Below are positions 1 to 46,764 of a stretch of DNA of 64,000 nt, piece after piece; positions within the stretch are counted from its first letter, which is position 1, and each line of letters begins with the position of its first letter. Position numbers and translations under genes: made by a program. Source of the stretch: an uncultured archaeon (GTDB lineage Archaea > Asgardarchaeota > Lokiarchaeia > Sigyniarchaeales > SOKP01); NCBI GenBank assembly GCA_964493385.1, contig CAZBNW010000003.1, positions 6,509 to 70,508 of the forward strand. The letters are read 5' to 3'. The notes beneath the pieces were generated by a model. The model made no database searches. It had not been told where the DNA came from and saw nothing but the letters and a program-made list of their open reading frames with translations.

Positions 1-1471
1 GTTCAGTTAGCATATTTTCCTTATCGATTATTGAATTATCTTTTATTAGTGGAGAATCAGTTATTTCCTTAATCCAAGATATAGATTTTTTATGTTCAAT
101 GTTGTTTAAAGCATACTCAATGATTTCTCCGATTATAGAACCATGATTTAATTCACATATTGCTTCTGTTGGGCTATTTTCAGTGTATTGATAACTAAAT
201 AAATTACAACTAGTAATCCATGCATAACTTTGATCAATTACTAAAAATTTGCTGTGGAATTTTTCTCTGCTTTTAATAAACGCTATTTTGTCACTTTTAA
301 AAAGGGGAACTTTTTCCTTTAAATTCTCAATCTCTTCTCCAAGTAATCCCCAAAGAAGAATGACTTTAATATTTCTAGAATCCAATTTTTGAAGCAATGG
401 AATTAAATTATGAATACTGGATTCATTAACAAATGCAGAACCAATTATTACTAACTTTTTTGCTTCATTAAAGGTATTCTCCAATTTTGTTAAGATTTCT
501 TTTCCTTTATTTAGTTCAGCATTAATAAATCCAACATTGGCTCCCAAATCCATCATTTTGGGAATCAGATAATTCAAAGCTTCATTTTCCAAATTGTTAA
601 ATATTTTCTGGAATGCTTTTTTTTTTTCTCTGGTTTTTAGAGGTCTGCTTAGAGCATCCCCAATATCTTTATTGATTTCATTCCATTTTTTTATTAGTGT
701 GTGCCAATGATATTGAGACAAATACTCTTCATCGGCAGGAGTGAGATCATTAATGGTGTATGAATCAATTTTTGTTAGTGATTTCGTCCAAAATTCAATA
801 ACTGATATTGGAATTGTACTTGAATAAGGGATATAATATTCAGTATCATTAATTGTTCTCAATTTCATAGGGATGAACATAGTTCTACTATTAACTGGAA
901 TTAAATCATAAACCCTATTCACGCGTTCAAATATATCACCCTCACTAATATATGTTCTAAGTACCATTTTTGCTGTTTTAATAAGAGTTTGTATAGATAA
1001 ATTCTGAATATTAATATAATTTCGGTGACTGAGTTGAAGTTGTTCTGTAGACTCCATCCATTTACCTCTCAAGCTGGGGGGGACTTTTAAGTAATCTCTT
1101 ATATCATTTAACATCATTATTTGACCCGTAATTGTCTCTTGTACCCAATCTATGGATATAGTTTCAGGAATATCATCTTCTAAATATTCGTTTAAACGCC
1201 CACGATCTATAAAATCTTCGATTTCGGATGACACATATATTTTAGATTTGTCTAAGTCAACAAATACATATTCTTTATACATTAGATCAACAATAGCTTC
1301 TTGAACTAATCTTTTATCAATATTAAAAGCATTAACAATTGTTTCTAGATTATTTTCTTTAACAGCTAACTCTAATATAAAAGGATGGAGGGGATTTACC
1401 TTTTTTCTTCCCTTAAGTTGAACTTTTCCTTCATAAATAATAATTGGAAGTGCTAAATACTTTATTCTCAT
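1..1471 (-). CDS. PLD/HKD-superfamily nuclease-like protein, N-terminal ~490 codons only (continues past the left edge); MkoB-like partner of the upstream helicase
   Basis: Absent from the ORF track because it has no stop in the window. Manual minus-strand translation from ATG (1471..1469) stays open to position 1. It contains HSKFLVIDQSYAWITSCN (codons ~203..256), which fits HxKxxxxD-x6-(G/T)SxN, the HKD signature of Nuc/BfiI/Zucchini-type PLD nucleases. It is preceded by LVIIGSAF...NIKVILLWG. The ATG overlaps the upstream TGA (ATGA at 1468..1471). Confidence 0.7.
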   Translation of the reverse strand, partial: MRIKYLALPIIIYEGKVQLKGRKKVNPLHPFILELAVKENNLETIVNAFNIDKRLVQEAIVDLMYKEYVFVDLDKSKIYVSSEIEDFIDRGRLNEYLEDDIPETISIDWVQETITGQIMMLNDIRDYLKVPPSLRGKWMESTEQLQLSHRNYINIQNLSIQTLIKTAKMVLRTYISEGDIFERVNRVYDLIPVNSRTMFIPMKLRTINDTEYYIPYSSTIPISVIEFWTKSLTKIDSYTINDLTPADEEYLSQYHWHTLIKKWNEINKDIGDALSRPLKTREKKKAFQKIFNNLENEALNYLIPKMMDLGANVGFINAELNKGKEILTKLENTFNEAKKLVIIGSAFVNESSIHNLIPLLQKLDSRNIKVILLWGLLGEEIENLKEKVPLFKSDKIAFIKSREKFHSKFLVIDQSYAWITSCNLFSYQYTENSPTEAICELNHGSIIGEIIEYALNNIEHKKSISWIKEITDSPLIKDNSIIDKENMLTE

Positions 1472-4400
1472 TTAAAGCCCTCCAGAATATCAGATTTAAT
1501 TGCAATCCCTTTTTCCTTTACAAAATGGTACACTTGATTTATTTTTTTAGCTTCATCAGCTTCTTTAAATTGTAAAAAATGAGCAGAACACCCAATAATA
1601 ACCATTCTTTTTCGAACTCTTGAGAACATGACATTTAATCTCTCTTCTTCTATTAAAAATCCTAAGGCTCCTTTAATATCTTTTTTCTTGTTATTTCTTA
1701 CTAAAGAGATTATAACAATATCAGCTTGTTTTCCTTGATAAGAATCAACTGTGTGACAGTTATAAGATAATTCTTGGACATTGAAGGATTTACCTAAATT
1801 TTTATTAAAATTACTAGCTAAATTTTCCCGTTGAGCAGAGTATGGTGTTAAAAAGACTATATCTGAATAATTATTTGATTTAAATTTATCATCATATTCA
1901 AGATTTTTAACCAATTTAGTGATTAGGTTTATTTCACCCCTATTAAGACTGCTACCTTCTGCTGCTTTTTGATCTCCATATAAATTATTAGCCGAAACAT
2001 GAGGAGTATCAATCCATATTAATTGATTTGATTTGAAAAAATCTGGAGAATTAAATGGATCCCCTTCGCTTGGAGCCTTTTTTTTATTAATAAATTTTGT
2101 GTCATAAAAAATTGTTGAAATCATTTCTGAAATTAACGGAGGTAATCTGTATTGGTCCTCCAAAAGAGCGCAAGGATTATATTCTTGGTCGCTATATTGA
2201 GCTTTTACTGTCTTGAAATCTTCAAAAAGCGTTTTAAATAACTTAATATTTTTTAAACATTTATTATAGCTTTCTAGATATAGTGCATCATCCTTTTCTT
2301 CTTCCCTCTGATCCTCATCAAGTATCTCACTTAACGCAATTTCCATTTTATTATATTGGTATGGAGGTAACTGCCTTTGGTCTCCAATTAAAAGCCATCG
2401 ATGACCTAGATTCATTGGAAGTATTAATTCAACGGGATATGATTTAGCTGCTTCTTCTAGTATCACCCAATCAAATGGAGGAGCATTTTGTTTTAGCCAT
2501 TCAATAGCAGATGATGTTGAAGTAGCAAATACAACATTTGCAACTTTTAAAACTTCATCAGTCCAGCGAATGGAAGGATGATTATAGTTATCACTTAATG
2601 TTTTTTTCCATTCATTTTCAACATCTATATCTATGGATTTTATATTATTTGTATTACTCTTGGATTTTGTAAGTATTTCTTTTGTTATTCTCTCTTTAGT
2701 AAAATTTAATATGAAATCTGTTTCGATATATTCTTGCTCTTTCTCTGAACTGATTGTTCGAATCACAATTGGTTTTGGATCTAAACTTTTTGGAATTTTT
2801 TCTACAACAGCTTCAACAAGATGGTCTAACGGGTGATGATCTTTAGAAGATATTAAAATTCGTGAATTTGGATTATTTTTAAGAATTTTTGCCACAATTG
2901 TTGAAGCAATCCAAGTTTTTCCTGTCCCTGGAGGCCCTTGAACTAAATATAAAGGGATAGTGTTTAATATTTGGGATACAATCTTGTTTTGAATTTGAAA
3001 ATCTAAACCTAAATAAAAAGTTCTATACCATGGATTCAATATTGCAGTAAGAAGCAGGTCGTTATCTCTCACATAATCAATTGCGTTGTCTTTTCTCCGA
3101 TATAACTTATAAGACATACTCATATCAAAGGGTCTTATTACTCCCTCTTGAAGTATATCTTTATTTTTCTTCTTTATAGGACGTTCAATTTGAATCCTCA
3201 AGTTATTTTTGTTTATTTTTCTAATTGACCATTGGTTATAATTATCCCAATAAGAAGAAGGAGAATTTGAAGCAGATAATTCAATTAATCCTTTATTTTT
3301 ATTCCTAAACTCATTAATTATATCTAATAGCTTTCTTCTATCATCTCCTACCATATCTTTATCAAAATCTAAACTAATTTCTAATTCTGCAATTTCTTTC
3401 TCATCTGCAGCACTTCTCTTGTAGTCTTTTGTCTGAAATGAAATAATTTTTTCACTATCTAGAACATTTTCAGCCCTTAACATTGTTTGTAAATGCTCTA
3501 CAAACTGTTCTTCTTCATTTCTTATTTTTTTCTGCTCCTTTAGCTCTATTTGTGCCAGGCTCCACATTGTTCTCCATGAAGACTGGGGTTCTCTTATTTC
3601 TCTTCTATCTGTAAATCTAAATGCATTTTTGTAAATTCCAATTGGTCTTTTGTTTTTTATATAAGTAAAGATCTTTCTTGCTTCTTTTGGATAAATATCC
3701 TCCATATTCATTACTTCTTGATTATACGTTCCAGTTCTAAAATTTTGAGAGGGATTTAGAGAGAATGGAATATTGCTTTCAGTTAAAAGAATTAGGGGAA
3801 ATTTTTCATATCCAGTAGCAAATACTTTTGCATTAGAAAAGTTATCTAATAACCATGTATCTGGATTATCACGAATTTCTTGGGGAGATTTGGAAGATTT
3901 CAGTGCAACTTTTTGCAAAAATCGAGAATCTGCTCTATTATACCAATTAATTAATGGTCTGTCGATGAAAAGATTCTTGGTCTCTTCAAATTCTTCTAAA
4001 ATATCATTAATTGCACTTAAAATATCATTAATAGTTTTTGGCCTTTCCTGTGGATTTTGGGATATACATTTAATTATTAAATCTAATTCTGATTTGTTTA
4101 AAATTGAATTAGATGAAAAGAAGAATTCTTTAATCTCATTATAAGCAGAACTCCAATCGCTTAAATTTTTAAATGATTCTTTTGGGAAATTATTGTAAAA
4201 AATATAACATAATACCATTCCTAATGAATAAATATCACCAGCAAAAGGATTTGCGCGAGGTATTTGGTCTTTTTTTTTTAAGAATGATTCTGGAGCTTGA
4301 AATAGTGAGAATTCCTTTGGTTTAACTATATCTTTCTTTGGGATGAAATTGAGGTTATGCAAATATAAACTCCAAGTAAAACCTCCAATTTTGAAGATAT

Positions 4401-4911
4401 TCTCATCAGATTCTTCAGAAAAGAAAATAACACCTGGATGAATATTGCGATGTAATAATTTTGCAACATGTAAACATCTGACTCCATTCAACAAGGATCT
4501 AAATAATAACCATACTTCTTTACGAGATTTTGGATTTTTATCTTTTAAAAACCACAACTCATTAGTTTCATTCATCCATTCTTCTAATGATTTTCCATAT
4601 CTGGAACTTATAAGATAAAGTTTATTTGAATCATAATCAGCAAATGCGTCTAATAGTTGTAATAAAAAATGTCCGCCGCTTATTCCCATTGCTTTTCTAA
4701 TTAATCTTATCTCACGTTCCCAAAGTGTAACTGCTAATCTTTTTGCTTCCTCCTTTTCAGGAAGTTTAAATGTTTTTATCCTTACTAATTGATTATATAA
4801 TTCGTCAATCCCATAATATTCTTCTATATCTTCAGATTGAAAGATTAAGAAATTTGAATGAATTTCTTCACTAATAAAATATCTTTTGGTAGTTTTCGAC
4901 ATTATTGGCAC
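1468..4911 (-). CDS. Fusion of a protein-kinase-like (degenerate, probable pseudokinase) domain with an Upf1/DNA2-like superfamily-1 helicase (COG1112-type, MkoA-like)
   Basis: Kinase-fold landmarks: VRIKTF, HRNIHPGVI (where HRDxKPxN is expected), KIGGF (where DFG is expected), QAPE, DIYSLGMVL. Helicase motifs: GPPGTGKT (Walker A), DWVILEEAAK (II), LLIGDQRQLPP (III), YRLPP (IV), TVDSYQGKQADIVIISLVR (V), LNVMFSRVRKRMVIIG (VI). Confidence 0.85.
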   Translation of the reverse strand: MPIMSKTTKRYFISEEIHSNFLIFQSEDIEEYYGIDELYNQLVRIKTFKLPEKEEAKRLAVTLWEREIRLIRKAMGISGGHFLLQLLDAFADYDSNKLYLISSRYGKSLEEWMNETNELWFLKDKNPKSRKEVWLLFRSLLNGVRCLHVAKLLHRNIHPGVIFFSEESDENIFKIGGFTWSLYLHNLNFIPKKDIVKPKEFSLFQAPESFLKKKDQIPRANPFAGDIYSLGMVLCYIFYNNFPKESFKNLSDWSSAYNEIKEFFFSSNSILNKSELDLIIKCISQNPQERPKTINDILSAINDILEEFEETKNLFIDRPLINWYNRADSRFLQKVALKSSKSPQEIRDNPDTWLLDNFSNAKVFATGYEKFPLILLTESNIPFSLNPSQNFRTGTYNQEVMNMEDIYPKEARKIFTYIKNKRPIGIYKNAFRFTDRREIREPQSSWRTMWSLAQIELKEQKKIRNEEEQFVEHLQTMLRAENVLDSEKIISFQTKDYKRSAADEKEIAELEISLDFDKDMVGDDRRKLLDIINEFRNKNKGLIELSASNSPSSYWDNYNQWSIRKINKNNLRIQIERPIKKKNKDILQEGVIRPFDMSMSYKLYRRKDNAIDYVRDNDLLLTAILNPWYRTFYLGLDFQIQNKIVSQILNTIPLYLVQGPPGTGKTWIASTIVAKILKNNPNSRILISSKDHHPLDHLVEAVVEKIPKSLDPKPIVIRTISSEKEQEYIETDFILNFTKERITKEILTKSKSNTNNIKSIDIDVENEWKKTLSDNYNHPSIRWTDEVLKVANVVFATSTSSAIEWLKQNAPPFDWVILEEAAKSYPVELILPMNLGHRWLLIGDQRQLPPYQYNKMEIALSEILDEDQREEEKDDALYLESYNKCLKNIKLFKTLFEDFKTVKAQYSDQEYNPCALLEDQYRLPPLISEMISTIFYDTKFINKKKAPSEGDPFNSPDFFKSNQLIWIDTPHVSANNLYGDQKAAEGSSLNRGEINLITKLVKNLEYDDKFKSNNYSDIVFLTPYSAQRENLASNFNKNLGKSFNVQELSYNCHTVDSYQGKQADIVIISLVRNNKKKDIKGALGFLIEEERLNVMFSRVRKRMVIIGCSAHFLQFKEADEAKKINQVYHFVKEKGIAIKSDILEGFK

Positions 4912-4940
4912 TTCCTATTATGTAATAATAATATCGTTCT

Positions 4941-4950
4941 TTTATATAAA
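4941..4950 (-). promoter_or_regulatory. Candidate TATA-like element for the minus-strand helicase/PLD operon
   Basis: Palindromic TTTATATAAA lies 30-39 nt upstream of the ATG at 4911 on the minus strand. Such strings are common in AT-rich DNA. Confidence 0.2.
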
Positions 4951-4996
4951 AATGTATTTTGGGACTATTTTTTGTGTTTTATTCACTTGTTAATAG

Positions 4997-5016
4997 TATC
5001 AAATTTTTGCTTGATA
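4997..5016. promoter_or_regulatory. Inverted repeat TATCAA-N8-TTGATA, candidate operator in the divergent intergenic region
   Basis: Read directly: TATCAA (4997..5002), spacer atttttgc, TTGATA (5011..5016). It sits immediately upstream of the TATA-like box of the XRE-led operon. Confidence 0.3.
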
Positions 5017-5025
5017 TAGCGAACA

Positions 5026-5033
5026 TTTATATA
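5026..5033 (+). promoter_or_regulatory. Candidate archaeal TATA box for a leaderless XRE-pAgo operon transcript
   Basis: TTTATATA spans -30..-23 relative to the A of ATG at 5056. This is the canonical spacing for an archaeal TATA box with the TSS at the start codon. A purine-rich AGCGAACA lies just upstream, where a BRE would be. Confidence 0.35.
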
Positions 5034-5055
5034 TGAAACATACTTTATTGTATAT

Positions 5056-5400
5056 ATGGAAAGTAATTTAGGTTCATATTTGAAGCAAATAAGGAAAAAA
5101 TTAAATTTAACCTTACGCGATGTTCAAGCAGAAACAGGAATTTCTAATGCTTATTTAAGTCAACTAGAAAATAGTAAAAGCTCCAATCCTTCTCCTAATA
5201 TTTTACATAAATTAGCAGAGTATTATAAAATATCATATGAATTTCTAATGAAACTTGTAGGTTATCCTACTATTAGTGAAGAGCGTAGAATAACACCATT
5301 TCATAGAATTCAAAGTGATTTTCAAGAATTATCTCAAGATGAAAGAAACCAGGTTCTAGATTATATTCATTTTTTAAAATCAAAAAGGAAAAAACTATGA
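5056..5400 (+). CDS. XRE-family helix-turn-helix transcriptional regulator
   Basis: LNLTLRDVQAETGISNAYLSQLENSK is a typical HTH_3/Cro-CI motif. The stop overlaps the next start (ATGA at 5397..5400). Confidence 0.85.
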   Translation: MESNLGSYLKQIRKKLNLTLRDVQAETGISNAYLSQLENSKSSNPSPNILHKLAEYYKISYEFLMKLVGYPTISEERRITPFHRIQSDFQELSQDERNQVLDYIHFLKSKRKKL

Positions 5401-6350
5401 AATGGTCTATCTCTAAATCTAAAATGTTTTATAAGTGTCAAAGAAAATGGTTTTATTATGATAAAGTTGCTAGTTGGAATGCTCAAGATGAACTTAGAAG
5501 AGAAGCTTACATATTGAAACAGTTAAAAAGTATTTATGCATGGAGAGGAAGTTTAGTCGACACTGTTATTGAGAAATTAATTGTTCCTCAATTAAAAGAA
5601 AAAAATATTCCTACTTGTTCTCAAATTGAAAACTATACTTTAGACTTAATAGAGCGCCAACTTAATTTTGCAAAAGAGAAGAAATATAGAGAAAATGGAA
5701 TAACTAAATCACAAGCTGGTGATGATTTCTGTGCTCTTTATGAAATTGAGTATGAAACTGGATTAGATGACAATTTAATAGATAAAGTAGTTAATGAGAT
5801 TTTTACTTCATTGAAAAATCTGCTAAAATCAAATATAATGCCAAAAATCCTTGAAAATTCAACACATATCTATGCACAACCTGTTTTACATTGCACCTTC
5901 AATGAAATTAATATTATAGCACATCCAGATTTAATTATTTTCTTTTATAAAGAACCACCTTTAATAATAGATTGGAAAGTTCATTTTTATGGAGATAGTG
6001 ATGCTTGGCTGCAATTAGGTATTTATGCTTATGTATTTATGAATTCTACTTTTAATGATTATTTGAATGAACCTCTCAATGATCCAACAAAAATTAGATT
6101 AATGGAATATCAATTGCTAAAAGATTTTCAGAGAGATTATAATATTACCTTAGAAAATATTGCTGATATTGAAGATTATATCTTTAAATCAACCCAAAAA
6201 ATGAATAAAATTCAATTTAATTCAGAGTATGATATTTCCAATGAATCTCAATATAATACAGCAATTCATCCAAAGTATTGTGTGTTTTGTAATTTTAGAA
6301 AATTATGTTGGGAAAAAAAAAAAATTCAAAAAAATTTATGGGAGTTTTAA
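5397..6350 (+). CDS. Cas4/RecB-like PD-(D/E)XK nuclease with putative Fe-S cysteines
   Basis: HPDLIIFF...LIIDWKV fits D...(D/E)xK. WLQLGIYAYVF fits the QxxxY motif. One N-terminal Cys (YKCQRKW) plus C-terminal CVFCNFRKLC (CxxCx5C) gives the Cas4/AddB-type 4-Cys pattern. Confidence 0.65.
   Translation: MKWSISKSKMFYKCQRKWFYYDKVASWNAQDELRREAYILKQLKSIYAWRGSLVDTVIEKLIVPQLKEKNIPTCSQIENYTLDLIERQLNFAKEKKYRENGITKSQAGDDFCALYEIEYETGLDDNLIDKVVNEIFTSLKNLLKSNIMPKILENSTHIYAQPVLHCTFNEINIIAHPDLIIFFYKEPPLIIDWKVHFYGDSDAWLQLGIYAYVFMNSTFNDYLNEPLNDPTKIRLMEYQLLKDFQRDYNITLENIADIEDYIFKSTQKMNKIQFNSEYDISNESQYNTAIHPKYCVFCNFRKLCWEKKKIQKNLWEF
6313..6324 (+). repeat. A12 homopolymer inside the nuclease/pAgo overlap
   Basis: Counted directly: G AAA AAA AAA AAA TT in the nuclease frame (WEKKKI). 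The pAgo reading frame (-1 relative to the nuclease frame) is already open across it. Confidence 0.9.
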
Positions 6351-6355
6351 AAAAA

Positions 6356-8725
6356 ATGAACATGCAAGAAACTAATATCTTTTTGATTGAAAATTTAGAA
6401 GATTTAAATTGTAGATATAATTTATATAAAATACGAGGCTTACACCCAAATTCTGAAGAATATTATAGAAATAAACAACTTTTAATAAATATTTTAAGAA
6501 GTAAAACTCAAACACCAATACAACCTTATAAATCTGATAAAGGGTTTGTAATTGCACAACTTACTGGTTATAAAGAACTGCCAGAATCAGAAATACTTGT
6601 AAGAGCTTCTGTAAAAATTGAAAAACTAGATAAGAGTTATGAGCTTAGATTTGATTCATTAACAGCAGAAACAGCTCCTTTAGCGAAGAAGTTTTTAGAA
6701 TGGGAAATACAACATAAATTTTATAATAATAATACATTATGGCAACCAAGTCCAGGATTCCCATATTATAAAAAGAATCCGGATAATTTTTTTAAAGACA
6801 AATCAAAAAAGGTTGATGTATATAATGGTTTTATATCAAGAATAATTCTCTTAAAAGGAAATAAATTGGGGATATGTGTTGATGTTACTAATAAATATAT
6901 AGCGCGTGAATATCTTCCAACGGAAATCGATAGAGATTTTTTCAATCGCTACTGTCGAGGGAATAAATGTATGTATGAATATGGGAAGAATTGGTATGAA
7001 TTTAAAATTCAATCCTTAAATGATCTAAAAGTTAATGAATACATGCTACCATGGGGTTCTAATTTATTTGAAGATGTACATAATAGAGCTGGAAAATACA
7101 AAACTCCAAGTTTATTAGCGCTACCAGATGATTGTTCAGTAATAACTTATTATAATTCTCGTAATGAAGCTCGTCATGCTCCTTCAGGATTATGCAAATT
7201 AACTTATGGAACTGATCATCCAGAGGTTAAAAAATTACATGATTATACGATAAAACCGCCACATAAAAGACGTAGTGAAATTGCTTTTATTATAAATAAC
7301 TATTTTAAAGATTTAGAATTTTCCCAAAAAGATATAAAATTGTCAAATACTCCATATTTAATACCTAATAAATATTTTAGTTTTCCAGATTTAAAGTTTG
7401 GGAATAATAGAATCTTATCTACTAAAAATCGAACAAATGTTATAAGAACAACTATTGATGAATACGGTAAAAAAAAGAAAGAGCTATTGTATTCAGAAGA
7501 TGCTGGATTATTTAATAAAGATAAAATTCTAGATAGGCAGTATATATTACTACCTAATTCCATCTCTATGACCTATGGACCCCAATTTATTAATGATATA
7601 AAATCAATGTTTAAGAGATTGTATACACACGATTCTGATCTTGTGTATTCTCCCGACGTTTTATATTATAATGACTCAGTACAAAAGAATGTTTATAGAT
7701 TAGGTCAAGAAATCATAAAGACAGTAGAAGATAATCAAATACCCTTTGGATTTGGCTTAGTTATGATTCCCCGGATAAAATCTAAATACAGCAATAAGGA
7801 AGATGAATTAGCTAATCTGGTTATGAAGGAGTTAAGAGATAGAGATCTATATGTATCTATCATACATACAAAAATGTTAAAAAATAGTTATAGTCTACAT
7901 ACAGATAACAATGATAAATTAATTTGTAAAATTATCTCAGACAATAGAGTATTAAGAAAATATAAAGGATACTTACAAAATGTTATTTTAAATAAAATTT
8001 TAATAACAAATAACTATAAACCTTTTATCCTTGGAACACCCTTAATCGCTGATTTAATAATCGGTATTGATGTGAAGAACGAGACAGCAGGATTTACTGC
8101 TATAAATAAAAATAGTGATATTATATTTTTTGACAATAGCGAATCACAGAATAAAGAACAATTAGGAAAAAATGAAGTTAGATCGAAAATTTATCAAATT
8201 ATAAATAATGAAAAAGAGTTTCATAATGTTAAAGATATTGTAATTCACCGTCAAGGAAAAATTTTCCCACCCGAAAAAGAAGGAATAAATTTAGCATTAA
8301 ATCAACTTGCAAAAAAAGATTTAATTTCTCCAAATTTTAACTGCACTTTTGTAGATTTAAGAACAACCTCAAGAGTACCTTATAGGCAATTTTTTATAAA
8401 AACTAATGCTTACAGTCATGGAGAAAAGGTATATAATCCAAGGATAGGGAGTTATTCCATAATGTCTGAGGATGAGGGGTATCTGTGTAATACTGGTTTT
8501 CCTTATTACCATAAAGGAACTACAAATCCAATTCATATTTTAAAGGAAGGTCCTTTAAATATTAATTCAGTATTGAAAGACGTGTTTTATACCTCAAATT
8601 TAACATGGACTAAGGTAGATTATTGTTCGAGGCTTCCAATTACAGTGAAACTGAATGATATAAGATTGAGAGAGATTGCTGGTGAATATGACCAAGATGC
8701 ATTGATTTATGAGGTGGAGGTGTAA
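6356..8725 (+). CDS. Long prokaryotic Argonaute (PIWI-domain protein), probably catalytically inactive
   Basis: PIWI landmarks: LIIGIDV (GxDV, D codon 8069..8071), IVIHRQGK where HRDG is expected (Q codon CAA at 8252..8254), C-terminal LPITVKLNDIRLREIAG. MID/PIWI junction: YLQNVILNKILITNN. The ~580 aa upstream are consistent with N/L1/PAZ-like/L2/MID. The track ORF starts at 6305. I prefer ATG 6356 (MNMQETN), 5 nt after the upstream stop; 6338 is also possible. Confidence 0.8.
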   Translation: MNMQETNIFLIENLEDLNCRYNLYKIRGLHPNSEEYYRNKQLLINILRSKTQTPIQPYKSDKGFVIAQLTGYKELPESEILVRASVKIEKLDKSYELRFDSLTAETAPLAKKFLEWEIQHKFYNNNTLWQPSPGFPYYKKNPDNFFKDKSKKVDVYNGFISRIILLKGNKLGICVDVTNKYIAREYLPTEIDRDFFNRYCRGNKCMYEYGKNWYEFKIQSLNDLKVNEYMLPWGSNLFEDVHNRAGKYKTPSLLALPDDCSVITYYNSRNEARHAPSGLCKLTYGTDHPEVKKLHDYTIKPPHKRRSEIAFIINNYFKDLEFSQKDIKLSNTPYLIPNKYFSFPDLKFGNNRILSTKNRTNVIRTTIDEYGKKKKELLYSEDAGLFNKDKILDRQYILLPNSISMTYGPQFINDIKSMFKRLYTHDSDLVYSPDVLYYNDSVQKNVYRLGQEIIKTVEDNQIPFGFGLVMIPRIKSKYSNKEDELANLVMKELRDRDLYVSIIHTKMLKNSYSLHTDNNDKLICKIISDNRVLRKYKGYLQNVILNKILITNNYKPFILGTPLIADLIIGIDVKNETAGFTAINKNSDIIFFDNSESQNKEQLGKNEVRSKIYQIINNEKEFHNVKDIVIHRQGKIFPPEKEGINLALNQLAKKDLISPNFNCTFVDLRTTSRVPYRQFFIKTNAYSHGEKVYNPRIGSYSIMSEDEGYLCNTGFPYYHKGTTNPIHILKEGPLNINSVLKDVFYTSNLTWTKVDYCSRLPITVKLNDIRLREIAGEYDQDALIYEVEV

Positions 8726-8744
8726 AATTTTGGGTCATATTGGT

Positions 8745-9134
8745 ATGATCGCTATAAAATTGAATCAAAATATAAAACTATTAAGAGGTTTCAATTCATC
8801 GCTCCGTTTTTTTAGAAATGTGACAGAATATAGTAAAAAAAGTGAAAGTGTGGAGCATATTAATAATATATCTGCTATCCTAAATCCAGTTTGTAATGTA
8901 ATAGAAGGGAATCTCTCAAAGTCAACTAAGATCAATGAGGATAATATTATTAAAACACTCAAGAAAAAATTTAGAAATAATTGGTTAAGTTATAAAAATG
9001 AACTATTAAATTTAAAAACAAAATTGGATTCAGAAAGATTTTTTTTAACTGAGGATGATTTCACTCTTTTAAATGACATTGGAGACGCGATAAACGTTGA
9101 ATGCATTAACTTATTTAACAGATTAAATGAGTGA
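8745..9134 (+). CDS. Small hypothetical protein in the pAgo operon (no recognisable motif)
   Basis: ORF in the track (8709..9134). The start is uncertain: ATG 8709 overlaps the pAgo gene, TTG 8730 follows GGAGGTG, and ATG 8745 is also available. The stop overlaps the next gene start (GTGA at 9131..9134). Confidence 0.4.
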   Translation: MIAIKLNQNIKLLRGFNSSLRFFRNVTEYSKKSESVEHINNISAILNPVCNVIEGNLSKSTKINEDNIIKTLKKKFRNNWLSYKNELLNLKTKLDSERFFLTEDDFTLLNDIGDAINVECINLFNRLNE

Positions 9135-10279
9135 TTATAACGAGAAAAAATATTAAAGCGATTATTATAGAACAAATAAATAGAGGAAATAAGTTAAAAA
9201 ATTTAATAAATGGTAATCTTGATTCTTTATTAGATAATCTAATTAACAAATGTATTTTTTTAATAAATGAAACCTTGGATTATCTTAATTTTCTATTAGA
9301 TGAATTAGAAAATAATCAAAATGTTGATATAAGAAATTCATTTAGAGATGTCCGTATATGCATTATCCTTTTGAAAGAATTAGAGTATTATGGTATATCA
9401 GCGCTATATCATCAAACAAATGATTTAAAATATATTAACAAATTAATTCACGATATCCATCAAGAACTTTCATTACCTCTCGATCCTCCATCAGCTGCAT
9501 GTATCTCAACAAAATATTACTATTATCATCCATTAACAAATGTTATATTTATGCCAATTGGAGAAACTAATTCATTATTGCATTTGCCAGATATTTTTCA
9601 TGAAATTGGACATGAAATCCTACATTACAGTGAAGATAATCCTGCACTTGTTGAGATCCATAGTAGCTATTTAATGGCAATAGAAGAAATTAATATATAT
9701 TATAATAAAATAATAAATGAAAAGAGAAGAGAAACAGGCTCTAAAATCATTATAGAATTGATTGAAACAATTCATTCTTATTGGAAGAATAACTGGATAA
9801 ATGAATATTTTTGTGACTTGTTTGCTTGCTATTCATTAGGACCTGCCTATGTTTGGGCACATTTTTTTTTAACACTAAAAAGCTCGGATAATATCTACAA
9901 ATTTTTAATCCAATCACACCCATCGGATGACTCAAGGCTTCTATTTTTATTATATACCTTAAAAAAAATTGGATTCAATGAAGAAAAAACTACCATATCA
10001 GAAAACTGGAATAAAATGCCTTTATCTATAGATGTTAAACCTGAAAATGAGTATAAATATGCATATCCTAAAGATTTAATGTACAAAATAGCAAAAATAT
10101 TTTTAGATGGTCTTGATAGATCTAATTTTTTGAAAATAACAGATAAAAGTTTAGATAATATGACTAAGGGTAAGGTTGTGCGAATATTAAATGATGCTTG
10201 GAAATCTTTTTTAAAGGATCCTGAAAAATATGGGGAATGGGAAGACGAGATCATAAAAGAATTAAAATCTGGTATGTAA
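9131..10279 (+). CDS. HExxH zinc-metallopeptidase-like protein (possible ImmA/IrrE-like)
   Basis: LPDIFHEIGHEILHY (HExxHxxxH) followed by NEYFCDLFACYSLGP, which recalls the E-x-x-(N/D)-x-FA-x-x-L-x-P segment of COG2856 proteases. The spacing is longer than I expect for that family. Confidence 0.5.
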   Translation: MIITRKNIKAIIIEQINRGNKLKNLINGNLDSLLDNLINKCIFLINETLDYLNFLLDELENNQNVDIRNSFRDVRICIILLKELEYYGISALYHQTNDLKYINKLIHDIHQELSLPLDPPSAACISTKYYYYHPLTNVIFMPIGETNSLLHLPDIFHEIGHEILHYSEDNPALVEIHSSYLMAIEEINIYYNKIINEKRRETGSKIIIELIETIHSYWKNNWINEYFCDLFACYSLGPAYVWAHFFLTLKSSDNIYKFLIQSHPSDDSRLLFLLYTLKKIGFNEEKTTISENWNKMPLSIDVKPENEYKYAYPKDLMYKIAKIFLDGLDRSNFLKITDKSLDNMTKGKVVRILNDAWKSFLKDPEKYGEWEDEIIKELKSGM

Positions 10280-10311
10280 AAAATTTGTTTTAGATTGTAG
10301 TTTACTAATTA

Positions 10312-10656
10312 CTAGCAACTTTGAGTATACACACTCTGACTCGCACCGTAATAATTCTCATAAATATGAAAATAAACTACATCACATTTTTCGTAATAAG
10401 TTATTTCATCATAAATTGAAGGTAGATCTTTATCAAGAACCACTTCTATAGTATTTCGCACAGCAGCTTTTGTTTGCTGTATCTTTCTCCAATCTAAAAC
10501 CAATTTCTCTCTTTTCAAAACATCCAACAATTCTTTAGCTACCTGCTTTACTATATCATTTTCTTCTTCAGTAAGATTTTCTGAAAGTACTCTATTTTCT
10601 TCTTTATCCAATTTTTTAATAAAAGCTATTAATTCTTCAGAAACCTTAAGTGCTTG
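10312..10656 (-). pseudogene. hsdR: Remnant of the C-terminal domain of a type I restriction enzyme R subunit (hsdR)
   Basis: LTEEENDIVKQVAKELLDVLKREKLVLDWRKIQQTKAAVRNTIEVVLDKDLP...Y matches my memory of the conserved HsdR C-terminal (DUF3387-type) region. The frame is open for only ~115 codons, bounded upstream by TAG at 10657..10659. There are no helicase or nuclease domains, and the first listed codon is TTG. Confidence 0.6.
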
Positions 10657-10758
10657 CTAAAATTTTAGCATTGATTTTAAAAAGAAAATTTCATTTATCT
10701 TATTAATCCGATATATTAGATAATTATCCGTTAATTATTATTTTATAGGAATTCAAAT

Positions 10759-13632
10759 ATGAGTGTATTAGATAAAGATTGGAATTTTAATATTAGAGAT
10801 ATTAATGAAATCATAGACAATATTGAGAGTAGTCGCAGTTTAATTAAAAATGTTTTCGCATTTCATAAAAAAAGGATACAACCAATTTGGAAAGACTGGT
10901 TAATTGATATAAAAAAATGGATTAATTCAGAAAAGCAATATAGTTTCAATCATAATATGACGAGATTAGAAATCTTGATTTCAAAATCATATATTTCTCA
11001 AATTCTAAAAATTGATTCTTTTATATCTTTCTTTTTTAATTTTAATGAGAAAATTGTCTCTTCTAAAATTGAGTTAAAATTATTTGTTATAAGGTTTATT
11101 GAAGCTTTTGAACACTTAGATTTAGAAGATCATAATTTAATTATAAAATTCAAGAAGTTTACTAAATATTTAATTGAATTAATTGGAAATAAATTGCGTA
11201 AAGAAATATCTTACGAATTGCTAAATAATTACTTGTCTCTCTTAAGACTAGTTTTTCCCTTATTAACTATTGGAGAATTTAGCAGACAAGAGTTTCTACA
11301 ATATTTTTCAATATTTGATGAGTTTCCACTTAAATATGATTTGATAGAGAAATATCAACTTCTCTTTAGTTATTATATTGAAATTGAAAATAATTTTGAA
11401 GAAATAAAAAATTTGTTTTTTCATTTTTTAAAAATTCATAGAAGAAAAGAAATCTACGATATATATTACCCTGATCCAACAAAATTTTGCAGGAATTTTG
11501 AAAATAGATTTAGAGTTAAACCAAAAAATTTTGTGTTCAATACTTACTTAGAATTTTATAAGAGTTCTACAACTAATTTTATCCCACCTCTTTTTCTGAA
11601 AAAAAAAAGCCTGAATAATCCTATAATATTAAAAATTATATATAACAACCTTCAAAAAGAAAGATTCACCAATAGAGATTTAGAACAATTTTTTAATCAT
11701 TTTGTTCTGATCCACCCAAAAAAAGAGAATTTTAATTTATTTTGCTTAATAATATCTACATTAAAAAAACAGAATTTTCCAATTAATTTCTATAAAATTT
11801 ACGATTTAAAAAATTTTGATTTATCTGAAAAACTTATCCTAATTAATAAAATAATATCATTTAAGCCTGATTTTTATTGGAATAAATTACACCCTAAATA
11901 TCATAAATATTTAATTTCCAAAGAAAAGAATCTAAAAGTGGAAAAAAATTTAAAATTATATTTTAGGTTAATTTTAAAATTGGAGAACTACTCAGATTTT
12001 GGAGATTTTTGTTTTAATTTAAGAAATAATTTTTTTAAAATTAATAAAACTTTCAGAAAAAAATTGTTATTAGAAGTCGAAAAAATCTTAGATCTTAAGG
12101 AATTTTTATTACTAAAACGTTTATACCAGATAATTACAACAGAATTTTATAATATTTACAAAATAAATAATTACAAATCTTTAGATGAATTTATGTTAAA
12201 AGAATTAGATTCCAATTCAAGACATTTAAAAATTTTTCTTTTTGAACAATTTATAAGAATAGCAAAAAGAAATGATGATAGATTAAGTGGTAGAAAACTA
12301 TTTTTAGAATTCCAGAGATTTAGTAATAAAATTAATGAAGATGAAAAGAATTTAAATGATATTTTCAATGAATTTTTCTATAAAGATTATTATAACAGCT
12401 ATTCTATAGAATACGATTACTTTTTTACATTAATAGAATCAAAAGATAAAAAACTTCTAAATGATTTTATTGACGACCAAATCAAAAATGAAGAGAAGAG
12501 AATGATAAAAAATAATGAGAAACTGGGAATATTTTATTTTCTTAAAGGAGATTTACAAAATTCTTATATTTCAGTTGAAAATGCAATTTCTAGTTATGGA
12601 AAAACAAATATTCTTGTAGATATTTCAACAAATACAGTTGAAAATATAAAAAGATTGGCAAATTTTAAAGAAATCATAAGATTAGAACAAAATTTAAAAA
12701 ATTATGGGTCAATTTCAGATTTTATTAATGATTTAAAAGAACCTTTAACCTATTTTAAAAATAACAGTAACGGACTCATAGGATATTTCTTAAATTTTGA
12801 GATATACAAACATTATCATAATATTTATTGTTTCTTGACCTTAATAGATAATTTCGAAGCAAATATTATTGATAATAAAGAATATCTGAATGCCTTATTA
12901 AATTCGATTTATAAAAAATCAAAATTATGTATTGAATGGGCTGATATAAAGAAGTTATGGGAAAATAAAATTATTAACAAATTCAAGGAGGATGAATTAT
13001 TAAAATATGCTAAAATGCAATATGAAATCTTTAGTAAAAATCCGTTGTTAAATGGAATAAAAACATTTTTAGAAAATATTCAAAAACTAGGATCAAATTT
13101 GTATTTTTTGTTTAATTTTGATCCAGATAATTTAATCCATAATTTTAAAGAAAAATATCATTTGTTAAACAATATTTTTAATGAAAAATATCAAGATTTT
13201 TTATTTTTACCTCTAAATTACGAAGATCTTGATGAATTTAATAATATTCATTTGCCTTTTAAAAATATGCGAAAAGATTTTAATTTTTTTGTAATAACAC
13301 TGTCTAAAGCAATATCAGATTCTATAAATGTAAACCTACTTAAATCCGAACTTGGTATATCAGATTGGGATAAAGGTAGAATAAATATACTTGAAAATTT
13401 TATAGGAGAAAAATTAATTACAAAGGGAGAAACGATTAAAAAAATAATGTTTGGATTTAGAGAATTGAACAAACTACGATCTCATTTTGGGGTTACTCAC
13501 CGAAAACATCGTGATTATAAGAAAATTTTAAATAATTATTTGCTTCCAAATCTTTCAAAAATAGAAATTTCGAAGAAAATTATTTCAGATTTAACGGTTT
13601 CATTCACAAATTTAATTGAATTAATAGGATAA
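10759..13632 (+). CDS. Large (957 aa) N/K/F/I-rich hypothetical protein
   Basis: A long uninterrupted ORF in very AT-rich DNA, where random ORFs of this length are implausible. The only motif I see is C-terminal ELNKLRSHFGVTHRKH (Rx6H, weakly HEPN-like). Confidence 0.6.
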   Translation: MSVLDKDWNFNIRDINEIIDNIESSRSLIKNVFAFHKKRIQPIWKDWLIDIKKWINSEKQYSFNHNMTRLEILISKSYISQILKIDSFISFFFNFNEKIVSSKIELKLFVIRFIEAFEHLDLEDHNLIIKFKKFTKYLIELIGNKLRKEISYELLNNYLSLLRLVFPLLTIGEFSRQEFLQYFSIFDEFPLKYDLIEKYQLLFSYYIEIENNFEEIKNLFFHFLKIHRRKEIYDIYYPDPTKFCRNFENRFRVKPKNFVFNTYLEFYKSSTTNFIPPLFLKKKSLNNPIILKIIYNNLQKERFTNRDLEQFFNHFVLIHPKKENFNLFCLIISTLKKQNFPINFYKIYDLKNFDLSEKLILINKIISFKPDFYWNKLHPKYHKYLISKEKNLKVEKNLKLYFRLILKLENYSDFGDFCFNLRNNFFKINKTFRKKLLLEVEKILDLKEFLLLKRLYQIITTEFYNIYKINNYKSLDEFMLKELDSNSRHLKIFLFEQFIRIAKRNDDRLSGRKLFLEFQRFSNKINEDEKNLNDIFNEFFYKDYYNSYSIEYDYFFTLIESKDKKLLNDFIDDQIKNEEKRMIKNNEKLGIFYFLKGDLQNSYISVENAISSYGKTNILVDISTNTVENIKRLANFKEIIRLEQNLKNYGSISDFINDLKEPLTYFKNNSNGLIGYFLNFEIYKHYHNIYCFLTLIDNFEANIIDNKEYLNALLNSIYKKSKLCIEWADIKKLWENKIINKFKEDELLKYAKMQYEIFSKNPLLNGIKTFLENIQKLGSNLYFLFNFDPDNLIHNFKEKYHLLNNIFNEKYQDFLFLPLNYEDLDEFNNIHLPFKNMRKDFNFFVITLSKAISDSINVNLLKSELGISDWDKGRINILENFIGEKLITKGETIKKIMFGFRELNKLRSHFGVTHRKHRDYKKILNNYLLPNLSKIEISKKIISDLTVSFTNLIELIG

Positions 13633-14256: not shown

Positions 14257-15651
14257 ATGACAAATAGGATAAATAAAGAAAAAAATCGATATTCTTGTTC
14301 AAATAAGTTTAGAATTCAAAATAATCAAAATTATTGTAAGGATTATTCTTTAAAATATAATATTTGTAATCTTTTACCACAAGTATCTAAATATTCTACT
14401 TTGAATCTGATTGAAGATCTAAAGGGGGAAATTCAAAAATATCCTGAAATACTATCTCAGATTTTTCCAAATAGATATAAATATAATCATAAACAATTTT
14501 CTTTGTTTTGGCGTGGAGGAAGAAATATAAATTATATATCTAAGCTTTTGGCTAAGTCTAAAAATGAAAAAAATTTTTCGCTGGATGAGAGAGATTTAGA
14601 CTTATTAGAGGAACATTTTAAAAGAAAGTTTGGAAATCGAGTTACAAATTACTATCATATAATAAACCAATATAAGAATTCTAAAATATCATTAATAATC
14701 TTTATTGAATTGATAGAGTTAGAATTGGGTAAGATTTCAGGAGATGTTAAGGTAACTTACGGAGAACTTGCAAGAATTCTTGGTAGACATGAAAATTATG
14801 TATATCATATAAGAAAATATATTTTGAGTCAAAACAATAGACGATATAATCCAAACTATAAATTTGACTTAGAGACTTTGAAAGATTTTAAGACAAATCT
14901 TAGAATAATATTTAGGAACAAAGCGAGAAATAGTTTATCATATATTGATAAATATATCCAATTGAATCCGGATTTAAAGGAATATTTATATGAAAAAGTA
15001 ACGATAAAAAATCCTCATTTTTTTAAAACGATAGATTGTGAAAAAAAAGCATACTGGTTTGGTTTTCTATGTGCAGACGTAAAAATTACTGGAAAAAAAT
15101 ATGGTTACATGATTAGGCTGGAACTCGCGACTTCCGATCGAGAACGTCTAATAAAATTTGCTAACGCCATAGGTTTTGATGTTGAGAGAATAACGGACAG
15201 AAAACGTTGGTATTATGATAAGAATGGCATCTTAAAACTTAAAAAATCTTCATATATTCAATATAAATCAAGAAGTATGTTGCAGGATCTACTTAAGAAT
15301 GGACTTTCTACTTCAGCGAGTAATAGAGGATTGCCAAATTTTGTTTGGAATCTCAACAATTCAAATTTAGCTTTAGCTTTTCTGTTAGGATTTTATGATG
15401 GGGATGGTAGTTGGTTTGGAGGTTATAGTGCGGAAATTTATTCTTCTAACAAAGAAATATTAATACAAATTAAAAGAGCCTTTCAAATTGAATATCCAGT
15501 TCGCAAAACTAAAAATAAAGTAGTTGATAGCTTTACCGGAGAAATAATCCACAGAGCAGCATATAGAATAACTTTAGGCGTCAAACTCTTTGAAAAAATG
15601 ATTAAAAGTTATGATGGTAGCATGAAACGAAAAAGACCTTCAGAATTTTAA
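14257..15651 (+). CDS. Free-standing double-motif LAGLIDADG endonuclease-like protein with ~250-aa N-terminal extension
   Basis: YWFGFLCADVKI (degenerate motif 1) and LAFLLGFYDGDGSW (canonical motif 2) lie ~110 aa apart. The N-terminal part has an HTH-like VTYGELARILGRHENYVYHIRKYI. Confidence 0.7.
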   Translation: MTNRINKEKNRYSCSNKFRIQNNQNYCKDYSLKYNICNLLPQVSKYSTLNLIEDLKGEIQKYPEILSQIFPNRYKYNHKQFSLFWRGGRNINYISKLLAKSKNEKNFSLDERDLDLLEEHFKRKFGNRVTNYYHIINQYKNSKISLIIFIELIELELGKISGDVKVTYGELARILGRHENYVYHIRKYILSQNNRRYNPNYKFDLETLKDFKTNLRIIFRNKARNSLSYIDKYIQLNPDLKEYLYEKVTIKNPHFFKTIDCEKKAYWFGFLCADVKITGKKYGYMIRLELATSDRERLIKFANAIGFDVERITDRKRWYYDKNGILKLKKSSYIQYKSRSMLQDLLKNGLSTSASNRGLPNFVWNLNNSNLALAFLLGFYDGDGSWFGGYSAEIYSSNKEILIQIKRAFQIEYPVRKTKNKVVDSFTGEIIHRAAYRITLGVKLFEKMIKSYDGSMKRKRPSEF

Positions 15652-45261: not shown

Positions 45262-46764
45262 TTGCACACTATTTATCCGGCAATTGATATAAGAAATGGT
45301 AAGGTTGTTAGACTTACTCGAGGTGACTTTTCAAATCAAATTATATATTCTCAAGATCCTATCAATGTTCTTAGACAATTCATTAAAAGTGGCACAAGGT
45401 GGATACATATTATTAATTTGGACGGCGCCTTAACTGGTTCATTTGAAGAAAATCTTAGTTATAAAGTTATAATGGATCTTATAGAATTTTCAAAACAGTA
45501 TGGAATAAAAATTCAGATTGGTGGTGGTATAAGGGAAATTGAACTGATTGAAAAACTAATTAATAAAGGAATTCATCGAATTATTTTAAGTACAATTGCA
45601 ATTGAAAATACAAACCTACTGAAAAAAATAACTAAAAGATTTAGAAATAAAATTGCTGTTGCATTAGATATTTTGAGTGGGACAATTCGAATAAAAGGCT
45701 GGCAGTACGATACAAATTTAGATCTCCTTGAGGTTCTACACCAATTGGAGAATATTGGAATCCAAACTTTCATTGTTACTGATATTGAAAAAGATGGTAC
45801 ATTTGCTGGATTAAATATAAACCTTTATCAGGAATTGAAAAACAGTAAAAAACCCAATACCAAAATAATTGCATCAGGTGGAATTTCAAGCATAAATGAT
45901 GTAAAGAAGGCATTATTATATGCTGAGGGAGTTATAATAGGAAAAGCTTTGTATAATGGAAAAATTCCACTGAATACTTTAAAATCTTTCTTTGATAAAC
46001 TTCATAATTCAGGTTTGATAAGACGAGTCATACCTTGTCTGGATGTAAAAGAGGGAAGGGTAGTAAAGGGAGTTAAATTCAAGGATTTACAAGATAGTGG
46101 GGATCCAGTTAAAATGGCCCGTTATTACAATGAAGCAGGTGCCGATGAGTTAGTTTTTTTAGACATATCGGCAACTATAGAAGGGCGAAAAAGCATGCTT
46201 CACACAATTCGATCTGTAGCTGAAGAAATCTATATTCCTTTTACTGTTGGTGGTGGAATCAGGACAATTGAGGATATGACTACCATTATCAAAGCAGGAG
46301 CTGAAAAAGTTAGTATAAACTCAGCAGCTATAAATGATCCTGATTTAATTACTAAAGGTGCAAATAAATTTGGCTCTCAATGCATAGTTGTCTCCATCGA
46401 CGCAAAAAGAAAAGCCAAATCATGGGAAGTATATTCTCACAGCGGTACAAGACCTACTGGACTCGATGCGCTAGAATGGGCAAAAACTGCTGTGGAGAAA
46501 GGTGCTGGTGAATTACTAGTTACCAGCATGGATAGAGATGGTACCAATTTAGGATACGATCTCGAATTAATCCAAAAAATCTCTAGTATGGTATCTGTAC
46601 CTGTGATTGCTTCTGGTGGAGCTGGCACTAAAGAACATTTCTTAGAAGCAATCAATAATGGAGCCGAAGCTATATTAGCTGCGTCTTTATTTCATTACAA
46701 TAAATTGGAAATCCAAGATTTGAAAAAATATCTGGATGATCACGATATTATGGTAAGGTTATGA
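45262..46764 (+). CDS. hisA/hisF: Single-polypeptide fusion of HisA (ProFAR isomerase) and HisF (IGP synthase cyclase subunit)
   Basis: The N-terminal half reads [20 protein letters not shown]...IQIGGGIR...IASGGISS...GKALYNG. The C-terminal half reads [20 protein letters not shown]...[12 protein letters not shown]...TVGGGIR...VSINSAA...[12 protein letters not shown]...[15 protein letters not shown]...VIASGGAG. One uninterrupted 500-codon ORF with a TTG start. Confidence 0.85.

Follow-up and report, generated by a model that had tools for sequence, protein, structure and literature searches.

A five-gene Argonaute cassette encoding a predicted metallopeptidase in a Lokiarchaeia archaeon

A stretch of 64,000 nucleotides from an uncultured archaeon of the Lokiarchaeia (contig CAZBNW010000003.1), referred to here as the window, contains at positions 5056-10279 an intact copy of a five-gene cassette centered on a prokaryotic Argonaute (pAgo) of the PliAgo type. 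The encoded proteins are, in order, an XRE-family regulator, a Cas4-family nuclease, a long pAgo, a small four-helix protein and a protein with an HExxH motif that is predicted to be a metallopeptidase. An original prediction, made from the sequence of the window, did not recognize this composition, which is in part already known. Thus, the trio of helix-turn-helix (HTH) regulator, Cas4-like nuclease and pAgo is that of the published PliAgo-group operon, and pAgo and nuclease are modeled in PADLOC. As far as the searchable literature shows, undescribed features are the obligate pair of small protein and predicted metalloprotease, the presence of this pair in both groups of DNA-guided RNA-cutting ("D-R") pAgos, the fusion of CHAT domains to some HExxH proteins and a pAgo lineage with glutamine in the slicer site. 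We read the cassette, with a probability of about 0.5, as an RNA-sensing Argonaute defense module whose output, by a mechanism that we infer, includes a dedicated protease.

Organization and conservation of the cassette

Five co-directional open reading frames (ORFs) on the + strand fill positions 5056-10279, as indicated by the ORF list and by reading of the sequence, and both the ORFs and the junctions between them are as claimed in the original prediction. The gene for the XRE-family HTH regulator (114 aa, 5056-5400, +; Pfam HTH_3 and PADLOC capH) is joined by an ATGA overlap at 5397-5400 to that for the Cas4-family PD-(D/E)XK nuclease with a four-cysteine Fe-S signature (317 aa, 5397-6350, +; PADLOC Aga_Cas4-like_Nuc). 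The nuclease stop codon TAA at 6348-6350 is followed, after a gap of 5 nt (6350/6356), by the ATG at 6356 of the gene for the long, PliAgo-group pAgo (789 aa, 6356-8725, +; PDB and PADLOC pAgo_II). From an alternative in-frame ATG at 6305 the pAgo gene would overlap the nuclease gene; the start at 6356 is favored because the longer ORF becomes similar to other pAgos only from about residue 20 onward. The pAgo gene ends with TAA at 8723-8725, and the small gene has three possible starts, these being ATG 8709 (141 aa, overlapping the pAgo gene), TTG 8730 (134 aa, 9 nt 3' of GGAGGTG and chosen by gene calls on sibling contigs) and ATG 8745 (129 aa; the 8725/8745 junction of the original prediction). 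Taken from 8730, the small four-helix-bundle protein has 134 aa (8730-9134, +; AlphaFold2 [AF2] model and iterated hidden Markov model [HMM]), and its gene is joined by a GTGA overlap at 9131-9134 to that for the 382-aa HExxH/ExxxD protein (9131-10279, +), predicted from its motifs and AF2 model to be a metallopeptidase. The GC content of the cassette is approximately 26-28%, and GC skew and AT skew of the coding strand are both positive.

When one genome per species was scanned for the pAgo, an alignment-based query identified 26 loci and a single-sequence query none. The loci were from archaea (Bathyarchaeia, Methanoperedens, Nitrososphaerales, Nitrosotalea and Archaeoglobus) and bacteria (Cloacimonadota, Alpha- and Gammaproteobacteria, Sulfitobacter, Bythopirellula, Caldilineaceae, Saprospiraceae, Pyrinomonadaceae and Desulfobacter), and the order HTH-nuclease-pAgo-small ORF-HExxH was noted wherever the contig was long enough. 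A search based on the HExxH protein identified relatives on 433 metagenome stretches; among the best 80 of these 433, the full cassette was present in nearly all loci having enough upstream DNA, the exceptions being three truncated remnants and one more locus without regulator and nuclease. The two downstream genes, proposed in the original prediction as pAgo accessory factors, are therefore conserved pAgo partners, found in essentially every locus with enough sequence, and no recurring sixth gene was seen in the cassette relatives compared. At E<=0.001, a library of 1.84 billion proteins yielded 1,540 representatives of the HExxH family as a whole, and none of its relatives was found in IMG/VR viral contigs, so that carriage by phage is not supported.

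Packing of the genes was compared among 43 cassettes of other organisms, each distinct and complete, the junction distance being taken to the first start codon after a stop. The XRE gene was first in 43/43, an overlap of 4 nt was the most frequent junction, and for the four successive junctions the downstream gene started no more than 20 nt from the stop codon before it in 43/43, 43/43, 43/43 and 38/43. Since tight junctions recur across these cassettes, the packing is not chance, and the original view of a tightly coupled five-gene unit is borne out. Pairwise identities of the nuclease, pAgo, small and HExxH proteins correlated with r = 0.90-0.96, as compared with approximately 0.78 for the HTH protein; identity of the HExxH protein, in particular, correlated with that of pAgo at r = 0.96 and with that of the HTH protein at r = 0.79. 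The values of 0.90-0.96 indicate inheritance and transfer of the four core proteins as a unit.

According to Lisitskaya (2022; PMC9360449), D-R pAgos fall into two groups, the first of which is defined by PliAgo and RslAgo, the gene for the pAgo comes after one for a PD-(D/E)XK nuclease that is a distant relative of Cas4, and the operon regulator is an HTH protein in the first group and a sigma-70 factor in the second. The window has the organization of the first group, with a Cas4-related nuclease upstream of pAgo and an HTH regulator leading the operon. Plasmid pRUNSL03 of Runella slithyformis, the strain being the source of the characterized RslAgo, was found to carry these five genes in unchanged order, annotated as HTH regulator, PD-(D/E)XK nuclease and hypothetical proteins of 801, 125 and 378 aa; the accessions of the cassette proteins are WP_041344179, WP_013921750, WP_013921749, WP_013921748 and WP_013921747. 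RefSeq labels the products of the two downstream genes "hypothetical protein", and PADLOC contains no model for them. Thus, a characterized pAgo already sits in the five-gene composition that had been thought unfamiliar.

On plasmids of Spirosoma and Emticicia the corresponding genes encode a sigma-70 factor, a 180-aa protein, nuclease, pAgo, small protein and HExxH protein. These pAgos are of the PnyAgo type (GxDVH; PADLOC PDLC02383, 1e-226), and family HMMs identified the HExxH (4e-73 and 2e-50) and small (5e-9 and 6e-5) proteins on the two plasmids. The PnyAgo group (Pedobacter nyackensis, Hydrobacter and Mucilaginibacter MbpAgo) therefore resembles the window in its nuclease-pAgo-small-HExxH core but differs in having a sigma-70-family factor and a protein of about 180 aa instead of XRE, and GxDVH instead of GIDVK. 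Because a sigma factor replaces XRE in this group, the conserved core is one of four genes with an exchangeable regulatory head. The protein of about 180 aa (L114, 2021-2566; L115, 1808-2350) gave only faint XRE-HTH signals (E about 0.1) and may represent a diverged equivalent of XRE or, alternatively, an anti-sigma factor.

Relatives of the cassette were noted on plasmids and beside Abi systems. On two plasmids, from Runella (L113, 8321-10500; PliAgo group, with DUF6527) and Spirosoma (L114, 1-1027; PnyAgo group), the cassette is adjoined by genes for a multiubiquitin-domain protein and a ThiF/E1-like adenylyltransferase (weak PADLOC E1-E2 matches), which may be a coincidence of defense islands or a recurring neighbor. 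Broken genes were also seen, including a pAgo split on a near-identical sibling contig (L003, 3762-6182), a Desulfobacter pAgo into which approximately 3.5 kb is inserted (L032, 5979-11923), a Saprospiraceae HExxH gene in four fragments (L028, 12864-13926) and a frameshifted nuclease in one of two CHAT-fusion cassettes (L116, 4294-5051), which may reflect either true decay or faults of assembly. An apparent fusion of the small and HExxH genes in a further locus (L014) was rejected, the long ORF being two separate genes.

Argonaute, nuclease and regulator

The original prediction had framed the pAgo as one of the long-B type, a placement that the structure searches contradict. Thus, a phmmer search of PDB sequences matched the pAgo to PliAgo (7r8f/7r8k) with an E value of 1e-110 over residues 5-783, and a search with the family profile ranked PliAgo (3e-200), 8xih/9wmd, VbAgo, KmAgo and an APACE1 pAgo, with no long-B structure at E<=1 in these PDB searches, which rank by similarity and are not a full phylogeny. 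The PADLOC model pAgo_II PDLC02382 ("Class II") matched at 5.5e-229, and there was no match in Pfam. The lysine of the PliAgo group two residues after the first catalytic Asp was also present (GIDVK, 570-574); according to PMC9360449, this residue (K565 of PliAgo) is peculiar to the PliAgo group and is His in the PnyAgo group. Judged by sequence, the window pAgo is a full-length relative of the PliAgo-type, DNA-guided and RNA-targeting pAgos, and belongs to a mostly archaeal clade with approximately 30-34% identity to bacterial members. The locus is therefore like those of the PliAgo group in full-length pAgo homology, GIDVK motif, upstream nuclease and leading HTH gene, as well as in the five genes shared with the RslAgo locus, but differs from them in having a DEQD rather than a DEDD catalytic tetrad.

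The tetrad of the window pAgo (D572/E601/Q633/D768) was aligned to D563/E592/D626/D762 of PliAgo, so that Q633 lies opposite D626 and the canonical DEDD arrangement is lacking. Among 79 homologues, residues 1, 2 and 4 of the tetrad were conserved in all those covering the respective columns while the third was Q in 59 and D in 20; across all fetched loci, the third residue was D in 44, Q in 31 and H in one. In a rough neighbor-joining tree rooted with PnyAgo-type proteins, pAgos with Q or H formed one crown clade within an archaeal-type branch, with two D forms nested in it, whereas those of the bacterial branch, including RslAgo, all had D at this position. The cassette was intact in lineages of both types. 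The distribution of Gln is that of a conserved feature of a lineage, and decay is not what it suggests. The description of the pAgo as inactive in the original prediction is accordingly right about the altered slicer site (Q633) and goes too far in view of the intact D572, E601 and D768, loss of slicing being plausible but unproven.

The nuclease had been called Cas4-like with an Fe-S cluster, which the comparisons uphold. It matched PADLOC Aga_Cas4-like_Nuc over its full length (3e-88) and Pfam PDDEXK_1 (1.6e-7), and D178, D192-W-K194, Q206, Y210, C14, C295, C298 and C304 were kept in 94-100% of 54 homologues. The ACE family is defined by a D...DxK active site with one N-terminal and three C-terminal cysteines (PMC12094033), and the same hallmarks, D...DxK, C14 and C295-x2-C298-x5-C304, were found here. 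By these motifs, the protein is a Cas4-family Fe-S enzyme with intact catalytic motifs. In length alone, its 317 aa resemble ACE2 enzymes, which average 313 aa. In a 2025 study, ACE1 was found to trim DNA guides and to form a heterodimer with its long-A pAgo, and ACE2 systems were left uncharacterized (PMC12094033). Like the window, that system (APACE1) co-encodes a long pAgo with a Cas4-family enzyme having D-DxK and 1+3 cysteines; it differs in consisting of two genes, in its DNA target, in belonging to other clades of both pAgo and ACE and in having neither protease nor small partner.

The regulator call was likewise confirmed, the HTH of the 114-aa protein (residues 5-69) matching Pfam HTH_3 at 1.2e-14. 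A conserved helix (E96, Y103 and F106) follows toward the C-terminus, and residues 2-110 matched positions 4-101 of the 103 in the PADLOC capH profile at 3.2e-12.

The small protein and the HExxH protein

Profile and Foldseek comparisons, as suggested in the original prediction for the two downstream proteins, gave no global fold or family match for either; the AF2 models of the two had predicted local distance difference test (pLDDT) scores of 86 and 94.5. The small protein is modeled as four helices and is basic (pI 9.3). It is the fastest-evolving component of the cassette, with a median pairwise identity of 22%, and is too diverged for a one-pass search; an iterated profile HMM was needed and tied together the small ORFs of archaeal cassettes, bacterial cassettes and the PnyAgo group. 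No match was found in Pfam, NCBIfam, PADLOC or PHROGs, nor any significant match among PDB folds. HEPN toxins, considered as relatives, were rejected, as they appeared only as low-probability four-helix matches and the Rx4-6H motif is not conserved.

The 382-aa protein, which the original prediction correctly singled out for its HExxH motif (HEIGH, residues 157-161), is acidic (pI 5.7) and soluble, with no transmembrane segment. Its AF2 model (predicted template-modeling score 0.92) is confident, with a zincin-like core, and has four long N-terminal helices followed by a three-stranded sheet (strands within 121-140), a helix (153-167) that carries H157-E158-x-x-H161 and a later helix (205-236) that carries E225-x-x-x-D229. 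The combination of HExxH and ExxxD is the signature of gluzincins such as thermolysin (E166/D170) and neprilysin (E646/D650), and the order seen in the model, with the HExxH helix after the sheet and ExxxD on a later helix, is that of gluzincins. In 87 homologues, which span both pAgo groups (PliAgo and PnyAgo) and two domains of life, H157, E158, H161, E225, D229, E85, E145, W218, W222, H263, R269 and W293 were invariant. Foldseek comparison of the model with PDB gave nothing at E<=0.001 and no global peptidase fold match, the best local matches being the minigluzincin jannalysin (4jix; probability 0.66 over 65 columns) and BlaR1. There was no family in Pfam, NCBIfam, PADLOC or PHROGs, the PHROG "peptidase" scoring 0.08; among 65 family members, Pfam gave no consistent peptidase match but only DUF1570 in 3/65 at 0.03; and the family profile returned noise only from all PDB sequences. 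Identity with M78 (ImmA/IrrE) or with CapP was rejected, as no match was obtained in Pfam, NCBIfam, PADLOC or PHROGs, even at E<=10 and in the 65 members. Motifs and model together predict a metallopeptidase of an undescribed family.

Variants of the HExxH protein were seen in cassettes that are otherwise normal. In at least two (P0208 and P0221), the protein is fused to a C-terminal, caspase-like CHAT domain, detected in Pfam above threshold in one (4e-9) and below threshold in the other (2e-4), with both residues of the caspase dyad, His and Cys, kept in intact HG and AC/TC motifs. A third protein (L118, 5311-7710) has a C-terminal extension of 420 aa with a second HExxH-like motif, HEFLH. 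AbiE genes flank the cassette of this third protein. One of the CHAT-fusion cassettes (L117) has a sixth gene (401 aa, 9896-11101) that overlaps the fusion gene by 4 nt and has no PADLOC match.

Proposed function, alternatives and genomic setting

In the mechanism that we favor, the XRE protein would control transcription of the operon and the Cas4-like nuclease, as ACE1 of APACE1 suggests by analogy, would produce or trim short guides of single-stranded DNA derived from the invader. The guide-loaded pAgo would then recognize complementary transcripts of the invader, which DEDD relatives would slice; in the DEQD lineage, recognition rather than slicing would probably be the main event, a view favored by the retention of the whole cassette in DEDD and DEQD lineages alike and by the single crown clade of the Q variants. 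Recognition would be relayed to the small and HExxH proteins, and the zinc protease would execute the response by cutting either a regulator or cellular proteins, with the fast-evolving small protein serving as its adaptor or inhibitor. An output role is favored over a purely regulatory one because the HExxH protein stays when the regulator is swapped, tracks pAgo more closely than it tracks the HTH protein, is encoded away from the HTH gene and has, in some lineages, acquired another protease domain.

The proposed logic resembles that of RNA-sensing CRISPR systems that have a protease under their control. Craspase of type III-E reportedly combines gRAMP and TPR-CHAT with Csx30, Csx31 and a sigma factor, and CalpL-CalpT-CalpS is said to be, likewise, an RNA-sensing CRISPR system with a protease. 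The likeness is one of function only, namely an RNA-targeting guided effector with a protease, a small partner and a transcription factor, to which the sigma factor of the PnyAgo group and the CHAT domains of some HExxH proteins may be added. In contrast, the sensor proteins are not homologous, the window protease is a predicted metalloenzyme and its activation and cleavage are postulated. In a stronger form of the proposal, pAgos of the PliAgo and PnyAgo types would not be RNA slicers that act alone but would serve a machine of four proteins as its sensor. Binding to an invader transcript would activate a dedicated and hitherto undescribed gluzincin protease held by its fast-evolving four-helix partner, the whole being an independently arisen counterpart of Craspase, and the DEQD pAgo would be a pure sensor that has given up slicing. 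This form is tentative, its chances being well short of even.

Several points weigh against the protease-output proposal. A physical link between HExxH protein and pAgo is hypothetical. Protease activity is likewise predicted from motifs, since there is neither a global fold match nor a sequence family, and HExxH motifs also occur in enzymes that are not proteases. Residual or altered catalysis by the DEQD site is possible because the other three tetrad residues are invariant. A protease with a purely regulatory task would be just as compatible with the CapH-like XRE protein. The authors of the ACE1 study caution that its guide role may not transfer to other clades (PMC12094033). Finally, the text and legends of PMC9360449 name only the nuclease and regulator, and its figures may already draw the downstream genes; nothing relevant to a link between pAgo and protease was found in the searchable literature, which lacks many subscription papers.

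A serious rival, although one that we consider rather unlikely, is a regulatory switch of the CapP/ImmA kind, suggested by the CapH-like XRE protein, in which the HExxH protein cleaves the XRE repressor on a cue of stress or infection and so induces the nuclease and pAgo, which do all of the defense, with the small protein as modulator. The full-length match of the XRE protein to capH (3e-12) points in this direction, pairs of an XRE regulator and a metalloprotease being established in defense (CapH-CapP and ImmR-ImmA), and the sister group has a sigma factor with a 180-aa protein, sigma and anti-sigma factors being typically controlled by proteolysis. The window is thus like CapH-CapP, ImmR-ImmA and DdrO-IrrE in co-encoding such a regulator with an HExxH protein, but its HExxH protein is larger, has another fold context and lacks M78 similarity, with no Peptidase_M78 or PADLOC family match at E<=10 in the 65 members. 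Moreover, the XRE and HExxH genes lie at opposite ends of the operon, separated by three genes, the HExxH protein tracks pAgo (r = 0.96) above HTH (r = 0.79) and is kept unchanged where a sigma factor replaces XRE, and the CHAT fusions look more like elaboration of an effector.

Improbable, in turn, is a role of the small and HExxH proteins in the biogenesis or loading of guides or as a guard against viral inhibitors, rather than as an output, for instance by SprT/Wss1-like clearing of proteins from DNA ends to let the Cas4-like nuclease generate guides. Their strict co-inheritance with nuclease and pAgo would accord with such a role, as would the rapid evolution of the small protein, which is expected at a host-parasite interface. 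In addition, PMC9360449 reports that PliAgo and RslAgo are functional in vitro when given synthetic guides and none of these partners, which leaves the supply of guides as a gap to be filled. However, no similarity to SprT/Wss1 or to a nucleic-acid-binding domain was found, the HExxH protein is acidic and the CHAT fusions are hard to fit.

An arrangement like that of BPAN (PMC10620215), in which a dead long-B pAgo unleashes a partner nuclease to cause abortive infection and the downstream genes are optional extras, has a very slim chance of applying here. The tetrad altered to DEQD, the intact nuclease encoded with it and the location in a defense island would suit it, BPAN being also a combination of impaired-slicer pAgo and nuclease in a defense setting. 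In contrast with BPAN, the pAgo of which is of the long-B clade, the window pAgo groups with active PliAgo, MbpAgo-like pAgos, VbAgo and KmAgo, and the PDB ranking gave no long-B placement. The BPAN nuclease bAgaN is of another orthogroup (og_15, RecB2/Card1-like) and is encoded downstream of its pAgo, whereas the window nuclease is of the Cas4 family and upstream; BPAN operons have two or three genes and direct RNA guides against DNA targets; DEDD relatives of the window pAgo carry the same cassette; and the downstream genes are obligate rather than optional.

Least probable of all is that the HExxH protein is no hydrolase but a scaffold, a pseudo-enzyme or a metal enzyme of other chemistry, which the missing peptidase fold and family would allow, as would the known non-proteases with this motif (the title of one paper names alpha-ketoglutarate-dependent HEXXH enzymes), but against which stand the His, Glu, His and ExxxD Glu/Asp invariant in 87 sequences, which argue for catalysis, the gluzincin order of a sheet, the helix with HExxH and, farther on, the helix with ExxxD, and the usual loss of catalytic residues from pseudo-enzymes.

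The cassette sits in a defense island. Back-to-back with it, on the - strand at 1-4911 of the window, is a type I Mokosh system comprising MkoA (1468-4911, -; an N-terminal protein kinase and SF1 helicase, PADLOC 4e-182) and an MkoB-like PLD protein (2-1471, -; PADLOC 8e-28) that runs off the start of the window. The control region between the cassette and the divergent mkoA (4912-5055), as read from the sequence, contains a TATA-like box, TTTATATA, at 5026-5033, approximately 26 nt before the ATG of the XRE gene, a mirrored TATA-like box, TATATAAA, at 4943-4950 that faces mkoA, and an imperfect direct repeat of 20 nt (5028-5047 and 5051-5070). These elements are only suggestive of an archaeal-type promoter with a leaderless transcript and of possible operator sites in the repeats, since chance matches are likely in a region so rich in AT. 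On the other side of the cassette, a 99-aa ORF (10312-10611, -) matches only the C-terminal end of HsdR (Pfam T1RH-like_C, 1.4e-6) and is probably a gene relic that marks a decaying defense island.

Farther along, a 957-aa ORF (10759-13632, +) in a stretch of 18-22% GC had no match in Pfam, NCBIfam, PADLOC or PHROGs; it is broken into 284 and 564 aa on one sibling metagenome contig (L001) and whole on others. A 464-aa protein encoded next to this low-GC stretch (14257-15651, +) has a weak LAGLIDADG-like domain (3e-5) and may be the product of a homing-endonuclease-type or mobile element gene. A 500-aa ORF (45262-46764, +), residues 4-238 of which match HisA and residues 252-499 HisF, is an apparent HisA-HisF fusion inside a histidine biosynthesis cluster. 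No rRNA or tRNA genes were found in the 64-kb window.

These results move the locus from an unknown long-B system to a PliAgo-type D-R pAgo cassette of the DEQD variant. D-R pAgos are under development as RNA tools and have so far been studied as isolated proteins. The way in which they are tested should change, as they always occur together with a Cas4-like nuclease, a small protein of helical structure and a putative zinc protease that are co-inherited with them across bacteria and archaea, and what to test is further affected by the large lineage of D-R pAgos that keeps the whole set while replacing the catalytic Asp. Should the protease prove to be the output, the cassette would represent a protease-coupled Argonaute system of a kind not found in the searchable literature and another case of the convergence of immune sensors on proteolytic signaling.

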